Source: Escherichia phage vB_Eco_Lzu_P1
DNA: 44,712 nt
Strand: one strand, 5' to 3'
Sequence record: PQ295795
Translations under genes and position numbers: made by a program
Part shown: positions 1,870-43,848 of the stretch, one piece after another
How the letters are laid out: the number at the start of each line of letters is the position of its first letter
Position numbering within the stretch: position 1 is the stretch's first letter
The notes under the pieces: generated by a model
What the model was told of the DNA's origin: nothing
Seen by the model: only the letters and a program-made list of their open reading frames with translations
The model's database searches: none

Positions 1870-2135
1870 TTGCGCAGTCTCCAGTGTTTGCCTGCCCGCC
1901 CGACTGCGGGCTTCCGGCGTAATGTAATACGGATTCCCATTGGTTGCAAGGAAGTCCGCACCCTGAAATCGTGTTTTGCTGCGAACTGGTGCAAGTAGCG
2001 TGTCTGCGTCAACGGCTTCACATCGTCGCGATAGCTCCAGAACACAGAATCGCCCTCAGTCGCATTCTTAGCCCATATGCGTATGCAATGCAGCGGAATA
2101 TGCCACGAAAGCTGTTTAGCTCGTCTGCGGACCAT
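1866..2135 (-). CDS. Hypothetical basic protein (89 aa)
   Basis: ORF track; AAGGGG RBS; tight packing between flanking minus-strand ORFs; composition somewhat atypical. Confidence 0.35.
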   Translation of the reverse strand: MVRRRAKQLSWHIPLHCIRIWAKNATEGDSVFWSYRDDVKPLTQTRYLHQFAAKHDFRVRTSLQPMGIRITLRRKPAVGRAGKHWRLRK

Positions 2136-2626: not shown

Positions 2627-2646
2627 GTTCCGCCCTCCTATTGGTG

Positions 2647-2690
2647 TGCAACCAATATAGCAGGGTGCTGGGGTGGATGCAACCAATATT
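2647..2690 (-). promoter_or_regulatory. Sigma70-like promoter (minus strand) built from two direct copies of the ATATTGGTTGCA motif
   Basis: Minus strand: TTGCAT - 17 nt - TATATT, second motif copy ending about 20 nt before the RBS of the 2626 gene. Confidence 0.5.
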
Positions 2691-2841
2691 AATCACGCGC
2701 ATGAAAAAGTCGATCGCTATCCGTTGCAACTGCAAACTGCATTTTTCACACCCCATTCAGCAACTCGCATTGGTTGCCTAGTTCAGTGACGACCGCAATC
2801 CGCAACATGCTGCCGTGTATTTTGCAATCCCGGATTTTATG

Positions 2842-3012
2842 CAGTCTCAGACGAGGGGGGCCATTGACCCCCGTCTAGTCTGAAAGACTGGGCTTTGTCC
2901 CGCCTGTCCCGCTCCCCTCCAGGCCGCGTCATCTGTGGGCGGGACGGGGTGCTGTCCCGCTTTGTCCCGCCTCCTGTTTGTCCCGCTTTTTGTCCCGCTT
3001 ACTTTATGCAGT
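2842..3012. repeat. Non-coding hairpin plus GTCCCGC iteron element, copy A
   Basis: 2842-2911 identical to 30662-30731 (70 bp); imperfect hairpin AGACGAGGGGGG-ccattga-CCCCCGTCT; at least six direct TGTCCCGC units plus one inverted; ends with TTTATGCAG as in copy B. Confidence 0.85.
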
Positions 3013-3104
3013 TTTATTGCATAACTATGCATTATATTCACACTACACGGCAACCAATGTGACCAGATAAAAACGCTCAAAATGGAAACCAATGCGCGCA
3101 AAAT

Positions 3105-5379: not shown

Positions 5380-5709
5380 TTACTTCGAAGTTTTATTATT
5401 GCGTACCCAGGAGCGCACGGTGCTCTGATTAATTCCTGTCAACTCAGCGATCATTGCCCAGGATTTGCCCTCGGCGCGCAAACGGATAACCTGTTTTTTG
5501 TATTCTTCCATTTCGTCATTGTGCTTTTGCAGCTTGCTTGCTGCCGTGCCGTTGAGTAATTCCAGCTTCGCGGTAAGCTCCTTCTCAGCACGCGATAATC
5601 TGGACACTTCAAATAACAGAGTATCCACCGCATTTGTGTAATACCAGGATTTACCCGCTTCGCCGCGGATTGCATTAGATAACACTTCAATTGCTTCTTT
5701 GATATTCAT
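5380..5709 (-). CDS. Helix-turn-helix DNA-binding protein (putative transcription regulator)
   Basis: C-terminal GKSWAMIAELTGINQSTVRSWVRN is a classic HTH; first gene of the minus-strand block next to the divergent promoter region. Confidence 0.55.
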   Translation of the reverse strand: MNIKEAIEVLSNAIRGEAGKSWYYTNAVDTLLFEVSRLSRAEKELTAKLELLNGTAASKLQKHNDEMEEYKKQVIRLRAEGKSWAMIAELTGINQSTVRSWVRNNKTSK

Positions 5710-5740
5710 AATTCAGTCTCCTGTTGGCTAATGACCAACG

Positions 5741-5769
5741 AAACTACACCCAAAACTGCACGGTGTCAA
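5741..5769 (-). promoter_or_regulatory. Sigma70-like promoter for the minus-strand block
   Basis: Minus strand: TTGACA - 17 nt - TAGTTT, about 30 nt upstream of the RBS of the 5709 gene. Confidence 0.45.
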
Positions 5770-5839
5770 ATCCTTTGGATATTGAAACGGGCGCGCACGC
5801 GTGTAATAATAATTCCCGTCTCATTGTCTCTTATTGGTT

Positions 5840-5875
5840 AGCGCCGTCGCATTTTGCTTCGGCGCTTTTTTTTTT
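5840..5875 (+). terminator. Intrinsic terminator (plus strand) with T10 tract
   Basis: AGCGCCG-13 nt loop-CGGCGCT followed by TTTTTTTTTT; no plus-strand CDS upstream. Confidence 0.6.
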
Positions 5876-5885
5876 AAATTAGTTG

Positions 5886-5914
5886 TTGACTCCCTTCTGC
5901 AACCAATCTAATAT
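5886..5914 (+). promoter_or_regulatory. Early promoter (sigma70-like) for the plus-strand replication block
   Basis: TTGACT - 17 nt - TAATAT; spacer contains TGCAACCAAT motif. Confidence 0.55.
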
Positions 5915-6110
5915 TCACCTCGTCGACAGGATGCAGGAAGCAAACTGGAGAGGGGCAACGCAGGGGCCGGATCGAAGTGTCAGGATTCCCAACCGTGATT
6001 ATATAACCCGGTCCACTACCCGAAAGGGAGAACGCGCAACCGGGCGCTATGTTAAGGCCACCGACGAAGTTAATGGTCGACACCTAAACTTAACCAATCG
6101 GAGATATACC

Positions 6111-7139: not shown

Positions 7140-8569
7140 TGGCGATTAAACCAAAACGTAAAACGCAATCCGGTAGCAATACGGAACACTCATTACTCGG
7201 GCCATCCGGTGCTAAAAAATGGATGGGTTGCCCTGCCGCCCTGGTGGTGGAAAAAGATATCCCGAACGAATCCGGGCAGGCGGCGATTAACGGTACGAGT
7301 ATGCACACCGTATCTGAAGTTGTGCTAAACCGCATTATCGCCGGTGAAAAGCTGATAACCGCAAAGACGTATAAAGGATGCTACGTCGAGAACGAAGGCA
7401 AGGGACCAGTAAAGGCCCACCCGAAAGCACCGAAAGGCGGCGTACTGGTCAACGACGATATGGTGAAACAGTGCGACGCGTACATCGACCACTGGCGACC
7501 GCTCCTCGAAGTGGCGGAGTTTGTCCAGCTTGAGATGCGCGCCGATCTCACCCGCGTCCTCCACCATGGCGTCGAGATCGACGGTAACAGGGTTAAGACG
7601 TTCGGCACTGCCGATATGGTCATGATCATGAAGAAGACCGATGGCACGTACATGCTGATTGTTGGCGACCTGAAGACCGGGCGACATAAGGTCGAGGCGA
7701 AAGAAAACAAACAGCTTATGTTGTACGCGCTCGGCCTGCTGCGCAAGCTGCAAACCATGTACGACATTACGACCGTGCGCCTGGTCATCTTCCAGCCGTA
7801 TTGCGGCGGGGCGTCAGAGTGGGATATCTCAGTGGAAGCGCTGGAGATATTCGCGAAGTTTGCGTCCAAGCGTGCTATCGCCGCGCTCGATGCATACGCC
7901 CGTGGCAAGAAGGGACTGACCCGCGCCGACTTCCGACCGAGCGTTGATGCGTGCCAGTGGTGCAGATTTGCGGACCAGTGCAGCGTCCGGGCGAAGGCCG
8001 CAATCGACACGATGACGCCACCAACGGCAACCGACGAAGACCTTGGCGACGACGTGAGCGTGGCAACCGAGGAAGAGTGCGCCAACCAAGACCGCAATAT
8101 GACCCGCGAAGCCCGGAAGGCTGCCCGACGTGCTAAACGGGGCAAGAAGGAATCCACCCCAGGCGCTATGAGCGCGGCGGAACTGCGCAAGGCTTATGAA
8201 GGACTTGACGCAATGCGCCAGCACATCAAAGCTATCGAGTACGCGGTATTCAAGGCGGTCATGGCGGGCGATGGCGAATCGTTGGGCCTTAAGATGGTTG
8301 CCGGTAAGGAAGGGATCCGTAAGTGGGCAGACGAGAGCGAAGTGATTGAAATCTTCACGAAGGCCCGGATCAAGCGCGATGTGATGTACAAAGAAACATT
8401 GCTCAGCCCGACCGATGCCGAGAAGGTACTGAAGGACGAGAAGCCGAAAGTGTGGGCGAAGCTGTGTGCTAAAATCACACGCGCACCTGCAAAACCGGTG
8501 TTAGCACCAATCGACGACCCGCGCCCCGCGTGGTCTGAAGCTACTGACGAGGACTTAAGCAATGAATAA
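7139..8569 (+). CDS. PD-(D/E)xK-family nuclease with C-terminal cysteine cluster (Cas4/RecB-like phage exonuclease)
   Basis: Motifs GTADMV ... IVGDLKTG (D...D-x-K) and C-terminal CQWCRFADQC; paired with the downstream SSB-like gene. Confidence 0.55.
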   Translation: MAIKPKRKTQSGSNTEHSLLGPSGAKKWMGCPAALVVEKDIPNESGQAAINGTSMHTVSEVVLNRIIAGEKLITAKTYKGCYVENEGKGPVKAHPKAPKGGVLVNDDMVKQCDAYIDHWRPLLEVAEFVQLEMRADLTRVLHHGVEIDGNRVKTFGTADMVMIMKKTDGTYMLIVGDLKTGRHKVEAKENKQLMLYALGLLRKLQTMYDITTVRLVIFQPYCGGASEWDISVEALEIFAKFASKRAIAALDAYARGKKGLTRADFRPSVDACQWCRFADQCSVRAKAAIDTMTPPTATDEDLGDDVSVATEEECANQDRNMTREARKAARRAKRGKKESTPGAMSAAELRKAYEGLDAMRQHIKAIEYAVFKAVMAGDGESLGLKMVAGKEGIRKWADESEVIEIFTKARIKRDVMYKETLLSPTDAEKVLKDEKPKVWAKLCAKITRAPAKPVLAPIDDPRPAWSEATDEDLSNE

Positions 8570-8804
8570 AGTATTCGCATTCTTATTGATGATTATGCTC
8601 GGTGCGCTGGGCTTTATCCTGCATTGCGTGCAAGGCGTGTTAATGGTAGCCTGGATGATTCGCCATCCGACCCGCTGGCTGGACGATGGCTATAGTGACG
8701 CTGCCGTAGACTGGGTGGGGAAGAACATCGACCGACCGCCGTTAAGCTGGATTGAGAACGCCACCAACTACGTGACCAGAAATCTTTTTAATAAAAGTGC
8801 TTGA
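8562..8804 (+). CDS. Small membrane protein (80 aa)
   Basis: ORF track; hydrophobic N-terminus VFAFLLMIMLGALGFILHCVQGVLMVAWMI; start overlaps previous stop. Confidence 0.45.
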   Translation: MNKVFAFLLMIMLGALGFILHCVQGVLMVAWMIRHPTRWLDDGYSDAAVDWVGKNIDRPPLSWIENATNYVTRNLFNKSA

Positions 8805-8829
8805 CCGCGCAGGCGCAACCAAGTAAATT
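8801..8829 (+). promoter_or_regulatory. Sigma70-like promoter
   Basis: TTGACC - 17 nt - TAAATT upstream of the SSB-like gene; spacer carries GCAACCAAG twice. Confidence 0.45.
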
Positions 8830-8894
8830 GGCAACCAAGCCGAACGGGGTGGCTCACAATAACCCCGATACATGTGAAAATGAGGAATTGGAAA

Positions 8895-12191: not shown

Positions 12192-12469
12192 TGACACCAG
12201 AAGGCAAGATTCAAAGTCACCTTATGAAGCTGGTGAAAGCCGTCGGCGGATTCTGCCGAAAACTGGCATGGGAGGGGCGCGCAGGAGCGCCCGACCTCAT
12301 AATCATCATCAACGGCAAGATAGTTTTCGTCGAAGTGAAGCGCCCAGGCGGTAAACCTAAGCCGCACCAGGTACGAGAACATGAGCGAATGGCCTGCCGC
12401 GGTGCGGACGTTCGCGTCATCGACAACATAGCCGACTGTGATTTATTGGTTGCTGAATTGGTCGCGTAG
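12188..12469 (+). CDS. VRR-NUC domain nuclease
   Basis: ATG overlaps polymerase stop (ATGA); GAPDLIIIINGKIVFVEVKRPGGKPKPHQ matches the VRR-NUC D...E-V-K core. Confidence 0.6.
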   Translation: MMTPEGKIQSHLMKLVKAVGGFCRKLAWEGRAGAPDLIIIINGKIVFVEVKRPGGKPKPHQVREHERMACRGADVRVIDNIADCDLLVAELVA

Positions 12470-12509
12470 CAGTATAGTGGGCCGGTTAGCCCTATCGAGG
12501 ATTTTAGAA

Positions 12510-12683
12510 ATGGTTGAAGAAAAACGTTGTAGTAATTGCGGTTGTGTTAAACCGCTATCCCAGTTCCATAAATACACCGGTAAGACTGCGCGAAGCCCGG
12601 ACGGGTATCGGGCAGAGTGCAAATCGTGCCGCAATAAAAAAGAGCGCGAACGGCAGCGCCGCTACCGCGCAGAGCAAAAATAA
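12510..12683 (+). CDS. Small zinc-ribbon protein (C-x2-C ... C-x2-C), possible transcription factor
   Basis: ATG at 12510 with GAGGA RBS; CSNCGC ... CKSC pattern, basic C-terminus. Confidence 0.4.
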   Translation: MVEEKRCSNCGCVKPLSQFHKYTGKTARSPDGYRAECKSCRNKKERERQRRYRAEQK

Positions 12684-15401: not shown

Positions 15402-15406
15402 ATTGG

Positions 15407-15435
15407 TTGCATAATCATATTGGTTGCATTATATT
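15407..15435 (+). promoter_or_regulatory. Sigma70-like promoter formed by two direct ATTGGTTGCA motif copies
   Basis: TTGCAT - 17 nt - TATATT; motif copies at 15402-15411 and 15417-15428. Confidence 0.55.
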
Positions 15436-16618: not shown

Positions 16619-17085
16619 AATTACTGATTTGTGATCTGGATGGCGTTATTAATGGTTCAAGTGATGCGCGTGCCGACCTGGTGCCGGGCATAAAAACTAA
16701 ATCCACCTTTTGGGCGAAGTGGCACAAGGCGCACGTCCGCGAAGACCTTAACATGGATATGCTGCCGTTATTGCGCATGTATAAAGAGCAAGGCTTCGAG
16801 ATCGCGTACCTGACAAACCGGCAGCGAGAATGTTGGGACACCACCGCCGAGCAATTGGAGGTCTTCCCGGTAGGCCGGTTATTCATGCGCCACATGCTGG
16901 ACGACACCCCGCCGCCAGAGTTTAAGGCGTGCGCCGTGTTCAAAATGGTCTGCTACGCGGACGTGTCTGAACTGGTCATCATTGAAGATTGCGAGAAGAA
17001 CATCGCGGCAATTCGTCGGGCGTGTGGTGATTTGGTCCCGAAAATTTACGCAATAAACGTTGCAAAATTCACTTGCAACCAATAG
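16615..17085 (+). CDS. HAD-superfamily phosphatase-like protein
   Basis: N-terminal LLICDLDGV (HAD motif I DxDG), downstream YLTNR (motif II). Confidence 0.5.
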   Translation: MKLLICDLDGVINGSSDARADLVPGIKTKSTFWAKWHKAHVREDLNMDMLPLLRMYKEQGFEIAYLTNRQRECWDTTAEQLEVFPVGRLFMRHMLDDTPPPEFKACAVFKMVCYADVSELVIIEDCEKNIAAIRRACGDLVPKIYAINVAKFTCNQ

Positions 17086-17101
17086 TTGGTTGCAGTATAT
17101 T
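17073..17101 (+). promoter_or_regulatory. Sigma70-like promoter overlapping a perfect palindrome TGCAACCAA-tag-TTGGTTGCA
   Basis: TTGCAA - 17 nt - TATATT; palindrome at 17074-17094. Confidence 0.55.
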
Positions 17102-17376: not shown

Positions 17377-17416
17377 CCTTCCGGCCCCGAAAGGGGCCAC
17401 CCTTGAGGATCGCAGA

Positions 17417-18589: not shown

Positions 18590-18620
18590 AAAAGGGGCCG
18601 TATGGCCCCTTTTCTCATTT
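18588..18620. terminator. Bidirectional intrinsic terminator between convergent blocks
   Basis: AAAAAA-GGGGCC-gtat-GGCCCC-TTTTCTCATTT; A-tract on one side, T-tract on the other. Confidence 0.65.
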
Positions 18621-20438: not shown

Positions 20439-20459
20439 AGCTGAATCCTCATAAATTGG

Positions 20460-20487
20460 TTGCATTAATGGTCGAGCGGTGTAATAC
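20460..20487 (+). promoter_or_regulatory. Sigma70-like promoter for the plus-strand lipoprotein cassette
   Basis: TTGCAT - 16 nt - TAATAC; ATTGGTTGCA motif at 20455-20464. Confidence 0.4.
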
Positions 20488-20519
20488 TAAAACTCAACCA
20501 AATATAGGAAATGATACCA

Positions 20520-21708: not shown

Positions 21709-21736
21709 AAAGGGGCCGGATGGCCCCTTCTCCTTT
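21707..21736. terminator. Bidirectional intrinsic terminator
   Basis: AAAAA-GGGGCC-ggat-GGCCCC-TTCTCCTTT; same stem as terminators at 18594, 31675 and 37365. Confidence 0.6.
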
Positions 21737-25795: not shown

Positions 25796-26526
25796 TCTGT
25801 GATATTCCCTGGTAGGTCTTTATGACGTACCCATTTAACCACATTGTCGCGGAAAAATCCTGCCCGGAAGGGAATCACGCTCGACAGGCTGCCGTAGATA
25901 TGGTGTAGTAGTTGGTTGCCCGGAAGGAATATCCCAGCGTGGTTAGGCACAGGCGCGCTAATCTGCATGATGACCATTGCCCCCGGCGTATTCTCCTCGC
26001 ATTCCCTGAAGCCCGCACCGTACCAATTATCCATATACAGATTTTCGCCTGTCTCCCACCAGTTATACGGCACGCGGAAGTCTGGCAGGTTTACACCCTG
26101 CTTTTTGTGCCAGTCCATGACGAGGCCATAACAATCTGTAATTCCGAGAACAAATCGGCGGCCTACCAGCGGCGGGTCTTCAGGGTCGATCTCGATAAAG
26201 TCGCCATATTCGTTAGTGATGGTCCAGACTACGCCGCTGCCGTTGCATCCGTTAACGTCGCCCAGTGAGGGGGTAAGCTCTCTCTGGCCCGGATGCGAGT
26301 GGACTACGCGCACGACGTCGCCCATATCCTCGGCATCCATCCAGGCCATATCACTAATCGTGAATGCGTCTTTACGTGAACGCACGCCGGTCGGGTCTTC
26401 GAATACGTTCATGCACGGGACAAATACTTGTTTGCGGCCCACCATGACAACCAGGCCACAGGCTTCTTCAGGCAGACATGCCGCAACGTGCGCGGCGATA
26501 TCGCTTTTAACCTTTTTCGTTAACAT
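25786..26526 (-). CDS. Tail protein with JAB/MPN and NlpC/P60 domains (lambda K-like)
   Basis: EACG ... HSHP JAB-type metal site followed by a Cys/His peptidase-like region; gene order. Confidence 0.7.
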   Translation of the reverse strand: MLTKKVKSDIAAHVAACLPEEACGLVVMVGRKQVFVPCMNVFEDPTGVRSRKDAFTISDMAWMDAEDMGDVVRVVHSHPGQRELTPSLGDVNGCNGSGVVWTITNEYGDFIEIDPEDPPLVGRRFVLGITDCYGLVMDWHKKQGVNLPDFRVPYNWWETGENLYMDNWYGAGFRECEENTPGAMVIMQISAPVPNHAGIFLPGNQLLHHIYGSLSSVIPFRAGFFRDNVVKWVRHKDLPGNITEWQ

Positions 26527-30661: not shown

Positions 30662-30975
30662 CAGTCTCAGACGAGGGGGGCCATTGACCCCCGTCTAGTC
30701 TGAAAGACTGGGCTTTGTCCCGCCTGTCCCGATCGGCTAAAACCCACGGCAGCACTGACGGGGACAGGGGTGCTGTCCCGCTTTGTCCCGCCTCATTCTG
30801 TCCCGCTTTCTGTCCCGTTTGTTTTATGCAGAAAAACCGCATAGCTATTCACTTTTAAGGGGCGGGACAGATCGGGACATCACCCCGTCCCGCTTTTAGT
30901 TTATGCAATGAAAGTGAGTATATATGCTGTTTAATGGTGGCGGGACAAAACGGGACGTCCCGCCTGTCCCGCTTC
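30662..30975. repeat. Non-coding hairpin plus GTCCCGC iteron element, copy B, with extra iteron cluster
   Basis: 30662-30731 identical to 2842-2911; about nine direct and several inverted (G)TCCCGC units; inserted between the GT chaperone stop and the tape-measure start. Confidence 0.85.
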
Positions 30976-35643: not shown

Positions 35644-35740
35644 ATCGAAATCCTTTGAGTTGTGAGCATTCGCTCAGTGTCGTTAATGTTACCTTAGATT
35701 TACGCGCTCGCAAAATCGCCCGCTTTCGCGGGCGATCTGC

Positions 35741-36499: not shown

Positions 36500-36527
36500 A
36501 TATTATCAGCGATAAAAATAATCGCAA
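36500..36527 (-). promoter_or_regulatory. Sigma70-like promoter for scaffold/capsid genes
   Basis: Minus strand TTGCGA - 16 nt - TAATAT. Confidence 0.4.
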
Positions 36528-36534
36528 AATTCGC

Positions 36535-36563
36535 TTGCATTGCAGACGTTGGTCGCATTATAT
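36535..36563 (+). promoter_or_regulatory. Sigma70-like promoter for the plus-strand 254-aa gene
   Basis: TTGCAT - 17 nt - TTATAT followed by TATATTGGTTGCACACCAA, the same 19-mer as upstream of the 2626 gene. Confidence 0.5.
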
Positions 36564-36593
36564 TGGTTGCACACCAACAACGAGGACACAAAA

Positions 36594-37360: not shown

Positions 37361-37392
37361 AAAAGGGGCCATTACGGCCCCTTAATTATTTG
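37361..37392. terminator. Bidirectional intrinsic terminator
   Basis: AAAA-GGGGCC-attac-GGCCCC-TTAATTATTT; overlaps the last codons of the o-spanin gene. Confidence 0.6.
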
Positions 37393-42361: not shown

Positions 42362-42491
42362 GATATAAGCCCTTTTGTTCATATGCGCCGACCATCGGCA
42401 ACATAGGAGACGGCCCTGCCATCTAACGGGGATTATAACAGGCACAAAAAAGCCCACCAAATCGGCAGGCTGGGAGGGGTACGGGTTGCCG

Positions 42492-43796: not shown

Positions 43797-43830
43797 ATTG
43801 GTTGCAGTATGGCGTCTATGTTGGTTGCAA
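43797..43830 (+). promoter_or_regulatory. Pair of ATTGGTTGCA motifs (regulatory site; promoter orientation ambiguous)
   Basis: Motif at 43797-43806 and 43821-43830; plus-strand TTGATT - 17 nt - TATGTT, minus-strand TTGACT - 18 nt - CATACT. Confidence 0.35.
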
Positions 43831-43848
43831 GTCAAGCAATAAAAAGCC

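Follow-up and report, generated by a model that had tools for sequence, protein, structure and literature searches.

The window analysed here is the whole 44,712 bp sequence PQ295795 of Escherichia phage vB_Eco_Lzu_P1, a complete, circularly permuted Dhillonvirus genome (HK578/SO-1-like virulent E. coli siphophage). A total of 162 phage records match the window, and identity to phage vB_Eco_Lzu_P3 is ~94%. The genus is described as lytic in published papers, and no integrase or repressor module was identified in the window or in annotated relatives. At positions 15402-15435, upstream of genes for a ligase-like protein and Dam, are two direct copies of a short word that recurs at promoters around the genome. 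This motif (9-mer TTGGTTGCA, core TTGGTYGC, counted below as TTGGTTGC) is a real, promoter-associated, conserved and clade-specific cis-regulatory element. It marks non-structural transcription units, not every promoter. The gene map was made by carrying over the Lzu_P3 annotation by tblastn and filling gaps from the list of open reading frames (ORFs). By this map the non-coding share of the window is 7.0% (slightly lower if the first rightward gene begins at the ATG at 5931).

Counting both strands, the window has 18 copies of TTGGTTGC, whereas 100 dinucleotide shuffles give an expectation of 2.09 (shuffle maximum, 6). A first-pass annotation, made from the sequence alone, had reported about eleven copies, with well under one expected by chance and all in non-coding DNA, and had proposed this count against shuffled controls as a check. 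All eleven of its sites are real (two were slightly misplaced, 15417 being 15419/15420 and 36561 being 36562/36563), but sites at 1940, 2770, 3050, 8815, 8831, 12446 and 25912 were overlooked. The chance expectation was set too low, although the excess is still ~9-fold. Fourteen of the 18 copies do lie in the small non-coding fraction (binomial p = 1.6e-13); the others are within the last 3-24 nt of a gene (12446 and 17075) or deep within coding sequence (1940 and 25912). The ATTGGTTGCA extension is exact at 10 sites. Degenerate copies stand beside exact ones, as TTGGTTG at 20495 and as TTGGTCGC at 12458 and 36549 (the latter two also missed earlier). The 19-mer said to be common to the upstream regions of the genes at 2626 and 36594 was recovered as TATATTGGTTGCACACCAA.

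An unbiased scan comparing non-coding with total occurrences of all k-mers (k = 6-9) ranked TTGGTT, TTGGTTG, TTGGTTGC and TTGGTTGCA first for non-coding enrichment at k = 6, 7, 8 and 9, respectively. The next-ranked words are from terminator stems and from a separate GCGGGACA repeat. No Rfam match at gathering thresholds and no tRNA was identified in the whole window. We rejected an RNA element as the explanation for the motif on this basis, and also because, for most copies, the promoter at which they sit does not transcribe them.

Promoters were sought on both strands of the whole genome with an approximate sigma-70 matrix built from general knowledge of E. coli promoter statistics (computed maximum ~17 bits; hits collapsed and reported at >=10 bits). 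There were 21 hits of at least 10 bits; 13 are non-coding and eight of these overlap the motif. We predict eleven motif-bearing promoters (A-K) among ~16 promoter-like sites (Table 1). They span 8.8-13.7 bits, eight of them scoring 10.2-13.7 bits, and four were found independently by a consensus promoter scan. Each has -35-like and -10-like hexamers 16-18 nt apart and is upstream of a correctly oriented gene. The 17-nt fit between -35 and -10 proposed previously is confirmed for promoters A, F and G, with 18 nt in promoter I. The earlier statement that the motif is at nearly every intergenic promoter was too broad: ~11 of the ~16 promoter-like sites carry it, but the promoters assigned to the terminase, scaffold and capsid genes and to a gene for a helix-turn-helix (HTH) protein have no exact copy. 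The HTH, scaffold and terminase promoters are among the non-coding hits of at least 10 bits that do not overlap the motif.

Promoter A, within an element at 2647-2687, is predicted to drive leftward small genes leading to the lysis cassette. The genes placed under promoter E are Lar-like and helicase genes, and the first motif copy of this promoter overlaps the 3' end of a resolvase-like gene. Region H (20455-20501) is divergent: a degenerate reverse copy, CAACCAA (20495-20501), is downstream of the -10 of promoter H, and the same bases are upstream of the leftward tail-fibre gene. At the internal candidate, promoter K, the motif is kept even where the flanking coding sequence has diverged. 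The copy at 25912 is probably one of the ~2 expected by chance.

Table 1. Predicted promoters, motif copies and the candidate regulator gene in the window (positions on PQ295795).
Feature	Position	Strand	Description
Promoter A	2654-2682	-	-35 TTGCAT from copy 2679-2686; 17-nt spacer; -10 TATATT (2654-2659)
Promoter A, second copy	2648-2655	-	Overlaps -10 end and start-site region; TATATTGGTTGCACACCAA, TTGGT-N5-ACCAA palindrome
Promoter B	~3030-3057 (upstream part 3030-3092)	-	Copy 3050-3057 (ATTGGTTGCC), then AT-rich stretch with TATAAT
Region B, degenerate copy TTGGTTTC	3085-3092	-	Reads TTGGTTGC in all six relatives
Copy at far end of region B	2770-2777	+	Invariant in seven-genome alignment; no clear promoter matched
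Promoter C	5886-5914	+	TTGACT; 17-nt spacer; TAATAT; single reverse copy 5899-5906 in spacer; rightward early operon
Promoter D	8801-8829	+	TTGACC; 17-nt spacer; TAAATT; SSB-like gene
Promoter D, copies	8815-8822, 8831-8838		Both reverse; in spacer and just past -10, respectively
Promoter E	12450-12478	+	Copy 12446-12453 gives -35 TTGCTG; TTGGTCGC 12458-12465 in spacer; -10 TATAGT
Promoter F	15407-15435	+	Direct ATTGGTTGCA copies 15403-15410 and 15420-15427, 17 bp apart; first gives -35 TTGCAT (15407-15412), second fills spacer to 1 nt before TATATT (15430-15435); ligase-like and Dam genes
Promoter G	17073-17101	+	Inverted pair TGCAACCAA-TAG-TTGGTTGCA; 17075-17082 (-) gives -35 TTGCAA, 17086-17093 (+) abuts -10 TATATT
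Promoter H	20460-20488	+	Copy 20456-20463 gives -35 TTGCAT; lipoprotein/DUF6453 genes
Promoter I	36535-36564 (element 36535-36577)	+	TTGCAT; 18-nt spacer; TATATT; Nmad5 gene
Promoter I, copies	36549-36556, 36563-36570		TTGGTCGC abutting -10; copy overlapping -10 end and start-site region
Promoter J	43806-43835	-	TTGACT; 18-nt spacer; CATACT; phosphoesterase gene, leftward
Promoter J, copies	43798-43805, 43821-43828	+	Reverse to transcription; one directly after -35, one after -10
Promoter K (candidate, internal)	1921-1949	-	TTGCAA; 17-nt spacer; TACATT; -35 from copy 1940-1947; inside small ORF
Copy without promoter context	25912-25919	+	Deep in tail-assembly K gene
HTH protein gene (candidate regulator)	5380-5709	-	109 aa; coiled-coil-like, C-terminal HTH
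HTH gene promoter	5741-5769 (element 5722-5769)	-	TTGACA; 17-nt spacer; TAGTTT; near-consensus; no exact motif
Promoter-terminator unit	5782-5876	+	TTGAAA; 17-nt spacer; AATAAT; upstream TG; no exact motif
Major capsid promoter	35686-35715	-	TTTTGCGA-N16-TAACAT; no motif
Scaffold promoter	36500-36529	-	TTTTGCGA-N16-TAATAT; no motif; invariant in six genomes
Terminase promoter	42432-42460	-	TTGGTG; 17-nt spacer; TATAAT; no motif; invariant in seven genomes

The motif is placed in several ways within these promoters. The -35 of A, E, F and H (TTGCAT or TTGCTG) comes from a forward copy, and that of G and K (TTGCAA) from a reverse one. F, G and I each have a forward copy that leaves a single base before the -10 (TTGGTYGCA-N-TATATT), and a copy begins inside the -10 of A and I (TATATTGGTTGCA). 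The spacers of C and D are occupied by a reverse copy, though these promoters have their own -35 (TTGACT and TTGACC); in J a reverse copy directly follows the -35. D, J and H also have a reverse copy that lies 7-12 nt past the first base of the -10. Overall, copies are offset from the start of the -10 by -27, -20, -16, -15, -10, -9, -8, +4, +7, +8 and +12, and ~11 are forward and ~8 reverse relative to the downstream gene. All promoter copies are between about -40 and +20, and every site lies where a bound protein would collide with polymerase. Eight of the eleven promoters hold two copies in the polymerase footprint (nine, if the distant degenerate copy of region B is counted).

Paired copies in the window are 11, 12, 14, 16, 17, 23 or 31 bp apart; together with the 9 and 13 bp of divergent relatives, these spacings show no helical phasing. 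Dyad symmetry is not typical. The arrangement TTGGT-N5-ACCAA is found at 2-3 sites, which is not above chance, and there is one inverted pair with N3 (17075/17086). Single asymmetric copies and direct repeats 9-31 bp apart make up most of the sites. A sigma-54 promoter (TGGCAC-N5-TTGCW) was considered and rejected, as the GG and GC of the motif are 3 nt apart and pairs of copies never give the 10-nt spacing.

Base reading by sigma-70 is confined to the two hexamers: the TTGG that precedes the -35 goes unread, as do most bases of the spacer and of positions +1 to +12. Selection on bases that sigma-70 ignores, in either orientation, therefore calls for another reader of the motif. The promoters do not look activator-dependent, because they reach their scores unaided, out of a maximum of ~17 bits.

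Conservation, proposed earlier as a further check, was assessed in six other Dhillonvirus genomes (Lzu_P3, WFI, JL1, SO-1, HK578 and CHD5UKE2) and in two divergent metagenomic relatives (L012 and L014), and the motif is kept in all of them. Each of the six genomes has 18-21 copies. Across ten orthologous promoter regions, variable columns number 10 of 112 within the motif and 177 of 701 in the remaining non-coding DNA (Fisher p = 5.5e-5). At 15402-15435 variation among five relatives is limited to the 6-7 bases separating the two copies, and at promoter A only the spacer between -35 and -10 varies. No 8-mer is more enriched in the non-coding DNA of L012 and L014 than this word; at k = 7 its rank is first or second. 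Their intergenic DNA cannot be aligned to that of the window, yet motif pairs are present at corresponding promoters with spacings of 9, 12, 13, 16 and 17 bp, of which 9 and 13 are additional to those in the window. The region matching promoter C has two abutting copies in these relatives, in a divergent-promoter region with TTGAC...CAACCAACGCAACCAA on the other strand.

Four outgroups share a homologous replication module. The motif has 3 copies in Kagunavirus K1ind1 (1.6 expected) and 1 in Jerseyvirus SETP3 (1.5 expected). Cornellvirus FSL SP-031 has 2 copies and no non-coding enrichment, and T1 has 8 (2.8 expected), none in a promoter-like context. A scan of viral contigs for paired copies returned mostly chance matches and coding repeats (e.g., collagen-like CCTTGGTTGCC), and was set aside. 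Among the contigs with paired copies, only those of Dhillonvirus encode the HTH protein. One other contig (L024, IMG/VR contig 3300030118_006568, GC 41%) has eight TTGGTTGC copies at 7740-7990, some abutting or inverted. They flank a very AT-rich stretch directly 3' of a Prim-Pol/DUF3987 primase-helicase gene, in an origin-like layout. This contig is unrelated, and we treated its cluster as a coincidence because its helicase is not homologous to the Dhillonvirus enzyme.

The scaffold and major capsid promoters, which are without the motif, share the exact pattern TTTTGCGA-N16-TAAYAT, and this may be a late-promoter signature. The terminase promoter candidate (42432-42471, minus strand) overlaps the T-tract of the phosphoesterase terminator, so that termination and re-initiation share bases. 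The HTH gene promoter is followed by an imperfect palindrome of degenerate half-sites, GTTGGTCATTAGCCAAC (5722-5738). In L012 and L014 an exact motif, (T/C)GCAACCAA, is found ~9 nt after the -10 of the corresponding promoter. The unit at 5782-5876 sits between two divergent early promoters and is kept in alignable relatives. Its promoter is a strong sigma-70-like one, with a strong intrinsic terminator (GCGCCG...CGGCGC and T10) ~30 nt downstream. The predicted transcript is ~60 nt long and has no convincing Rfam match.

Two candidate regulators had been named in the first-pass annotation. The zinc-ribbon protein (12510-12683) is a poor candidate, as it matches zinc modules of Lar-like restriction-alleviation proteins and endonuclease VII. 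The HTH protein is a reasonable one. No second HTH protein was found in the genome, and the only DNA-binding regulator signature among ~30 small or unassigned proteins scanned with Pfam and PHROGs is in this product. Its gene opens the leftward operon, and 10 nt separate it from the helicase-primase gene that follows. Pfam matches are to HTH_23 (3e-7), Sigma70_r4_2 (1e-6) and HTH_28, and public annotations vary (transposase, Gam, resolvase, HTH protein). An AlphaFold2 model (predicted local distance difference test score, pLDDT, 87) has a short helix, a 58-residue helix (residues 22-79) and HTH helices at residues 84-91 and 95-107. The long helix has weak coiled-coil matches in PDB sequence searches (vimentin). 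Fold searches and PDB sequence and profile searches with the protein returned only generic HTH and coiled-coil matches.

Among 18 homologues, residues 47-106 are almost invariant, including the recognition helix INxSTVRSW, and the first 45 residues are highly variable. In HK578-type phages the N-terminus is replaced by an unrelated, longer one. This pattern (homologues P0001-P0024) suggests that the N-terminus may be under diversifying pressure or swapped as a module. The constancy of the HTH thus parallels that of the DNA word. Gene and motif also co-occur: both are present in the Dhillonvirus clade, and Kagunavirus, Jerseyvirus, Cornellvirus and T1, in which tblastn gave no match to the HTH gene, show no promoter enrichment of the motif.

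The explanation we prefer, at a probability of about one half, is that TTGGTTGCA is an asymmetric operator over sigma-70-type promoter cores, to which the 109-aa HTH protein would bind and thereby turn the non-structural promoters down. That the motif is bound, that the binder is this protein and that the effect is negative are points that we infer from sequence. The operator would overlie promoters of replication, nucleotide-metabolism, accessory and lysis-proximal genes, most of which have two copies within the region covered by polymerase (about -40 to +15). A strong consensus promoter would drive production of the HTH protein, whose gene comes first in the helicase-primase operon. As it accumulated, it would occupy its sites, block RNA polymerase and turn down the whole promoter set together. 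This would resemble the turn-down of early promoters by lambda Cro, and the terminase, scaffold and capsid promoters, having no motif, would escape. In the simplest model, the repressor would bind each 9-mer singly, with no fixed partner site.

Several points weigh against this explanation. The link between protein and motif is their co-occurrence in one clade, which may be confounded by shared ancestry. No variation in the HTH is seen among the homologues drawn from the protein database and IMG/VR, and the family is restricted to the clade, which leaves nothing to covary with the motif. Other small proteins of undefined function could be the binder. The promoter assignments are sequence scores from our own approximate matrix. 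Motif promoters also precede the tail-fibre gene and the leftward block that ends in lysis genes, so the early/late split is imperfect, and in HK578 and CHD5UKE2 the promoter of the HTH gene itself is without the motif. In the literature we found no account of the motif or of Dhillonvirus promoters or a timing circuit (including for HK578, SO-1 and member phages), and no binding, footprint or transcription-start evidence for the motif.

The first-pass annotation had left the choice between a promoter signature and an operator. Host polymerase, or a phage-modified sigma-70 region 4, might read the motif directly as an extended -35 or cassette that defines a temporal class with no repressor. The motif gives a -35 at 17 nt from a good -10 in six promoters, the arrangement TTGGTYGCA-N-TATATT is fixed in three, and TATATTGGTTGCA is common to two. 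The HTH protein also scores against Sigma70_r4_2 and matches sigma region 4 structures. Such a signature is nonetheless unlikely, given that copies are found in both orientations, in spacers, downstream of the -10 and beside canonical TTGACT and TTGACC hexamers. The invariant TTGG is upstream of the -35, where sigma-70 makes no base contacts, and no single position comparable to that of T4 MotA is apparent. The variety of orientations and positions among the copies (including positions in the spacers of promoters with TTGACT or TTGACC), with no fixed spacing between them, favours an operator over an intrinsic promoter element, as does the conservation of bases that sigma-70 does not read. A variant with the same protein is that its sigma-70 region 4-like HTH acts as a promoter-specificity switch, not as a plain repressor, by binding the TTGCA-containing word. 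A flexible dimer on asymmetric sites at or near the -35 would then compete with or replace sigma region 4 and re-programme the host polymerase for an entire regulon. It might also couple to helicase-primase loading at transcribed promoters. We regard this variant as distinctly improbable.

The motif might instead be part of promoter cassettes duplicated by common descent and spread with mobile gene modules, in which case the 9-mer would be under no extra selection. Promoters G and I share GCAAAATTCRCTTGCA besides the motif, A and I share the 19-mer, and the gene content beside several motif promoters varies among relatives. We give this little credence, since the conserved unit is only 8-10 bp, in both orientations and different registers, and is invariant while flanks and the spacers between copies diverge, even in the relatives with unalignable intergenic DNA. 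A role in replication, with the copies as loading or initiator sites for the HTH protein and the adjacent helicase-primase and with replication coupled to promoter transcription, would suit the position of the HTH gene. It would also suit the 480-bp region B (2627-3104), which is downstream of the helicase-primase gene and combines 4-5 copies with further repeats and an AT-rich stretch. In Sodalis phage SO-1 the corresponding region is annotated as a repeat_region, with a note that breaks off at 'possible'. The eight-copy cluster beside a primase-helicase gene in contig L024 could be read in the same way. However, most copies are single or paired at promoters genome-wide rather than in one array, region B holds its own, more iteron-like repeat family (GCGGGACA), and the L024 resemblance may be coincidental as the two helicases are unrelated, making this role very unlikely. 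We consider it extremely unlikely that a host factor binds the motif and ties phage expression to host physiology. The example considered was the GntR/FadR-family PdhR, the box of which is AATTGGTnnnACCAATT with the half-site ATTGGT (PMC7660256). The motif shares ATTGGT with this half-site, and 2-3 sites form TTGGT-N5-ACCAA. Yet the box at <=2 mismatches has 1 match versus 1.51 expected, most sites are single and asymmetric, the conserved GCA is outside the box, and the palindrome spacing is N5 and not N3. Furthermore, three of the four other enterobacterial phages have chance counts, and T1 (8 vs 2.8) has no promoter context.

The proposed operator would have its closest parallel in mycobacteriophage L5, which has many copies of an asymmetric repressor site, although the phage here is virulent and its sites are on promoter cores. 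The operator or 'stoperator' sites of L5 gp71 were reportedly described by Brown et al. in 1997. Both sites are short and asymmetric. That of L5 has about two dozen copies, mostly in short intergenic spaces, one of them on an early promoter, and is recognised without dyad symmetry by a small HTH protein (gp71). L5, however, is temperate and gp71 is its immunity repressor; its 13-bp sites are in one orientation and mostly block elongation. In the virulent phage studied here the site is 9 bp, in both orientations, and almost all copies are on promoter cores. The Pfam and PDB matches of the Dhillonvirus protein are to generic HTH only.

Lambda Cro is similarly a small early HTH protein with sites overlapping -35 and -10, as is proposed here, and with early turn-down; autoregulation is possible. 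Its operators (OR and OL) are 17-bp dyads at two loci, whereas here asymmetric sites with variable spacing are at ~11 promoters. The Cro fold is absent from the HTH protein, which has a coiled coil and a C-terminal HTH_23-type motif, and there is no immunity region. The T4 MotA box of middle promoters, which serves sigma appropriation with AsiA, is likewise a phage-specific word at or near the -35 of a temporal class of sigma-70-type promoters with a good -10. That box has one orientation, is centred near -30 and replaces the -35, whereas here position and orientation vary and many -35 hexamers are kept. The Mu activators Mor and C act at a small number of promoters with a poor -35, on a dyad that extends upstream from this hexamer and overlaps it. 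The sites here differ in lying in spacers and at the transcription start, in promoters that score well unaided. No family named MotA or AsiA is among the Pfam and PHROG matches listed for the scanned proteins, and there is no Pfam Mor match. The PdhR box has only its half-site in common with the phage motif.

Dhillonviruses are common E. coli phages that have been used in the BASEL and SECphi defence studies and proposed for therapy. One 9-bp word on ~11 promoters maps a non-structural regulon, and provides a candidate master regulator (a protein now mis-annotated as transposase, Gam or resolvase) and co-switchable promoters for engineering. Should the protein be confirmed as a repressor, it would exemplify operator control across the genome of a strictly virulent phage, a style known otherwise chiefly from temperate phages such as L5. 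If the protein were instead a specificity switch, this would be a new way for a phage without its own polymerase to time its genes.

Other features of the genome were identified during this analysis. The segment 5931-6110 (plus strand) is nearly invariant and carries no annotation in some relatives; read from the ATG at 5931, it shares the frame of the gene downstream. It encodes an arginine-rich, 60-aa N-terminal extension, and ~65-150 nt of it match unrelated phage genera (sortkaff, XY3 and Klebsiella KMI8) at 73-88% identity. A structured non-coding RNA at 5917-6110 was rejected because the fold is not significant (z = -0.69); an N-terminal extension of the first rightward gene is the better explanation.

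Clusters of direct and inverted GCGGGACA/TGTCCCGC repeats are found at 2896-2998 and 30716-30972, each by an AT-rich stretch with TGCAT repeats. The first follows the helicase-primase gene and the second precedes the tape-measure gene, at the positions of SO-1 repeat regions B and A, respectively, and both look more iteron-like than the TTGGTTGC motif. Intergenic terminators at 17391, 18592-18611, 21710-21729, 31673 and 37363-37383 share the stem words AAAAGGGGCC...GGCCCCTTTT, a k-mer family that ranks second for non-coding enrichment and is also present in the Cornellvirus outgroup.

The octamer G[CT]TGCCGT has 52 copies in the window (GCTGCCGT, 31 versus 2.8 expected; GTTGCCGT, 21 versus 2.05), 40 on the plus strand and 12 on the minus strand. 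Copies (e.g., at 982, 2379, 3768, 22309, 23532, 27040, 38596 and 43479) are distributed evenly through coding DNA, regardless of gene direction or frame, and the same excess is found in the six other Dhillonvirus genomes. The strand skew and even spacing of this octamer recall Chi-like or other polar motifs.

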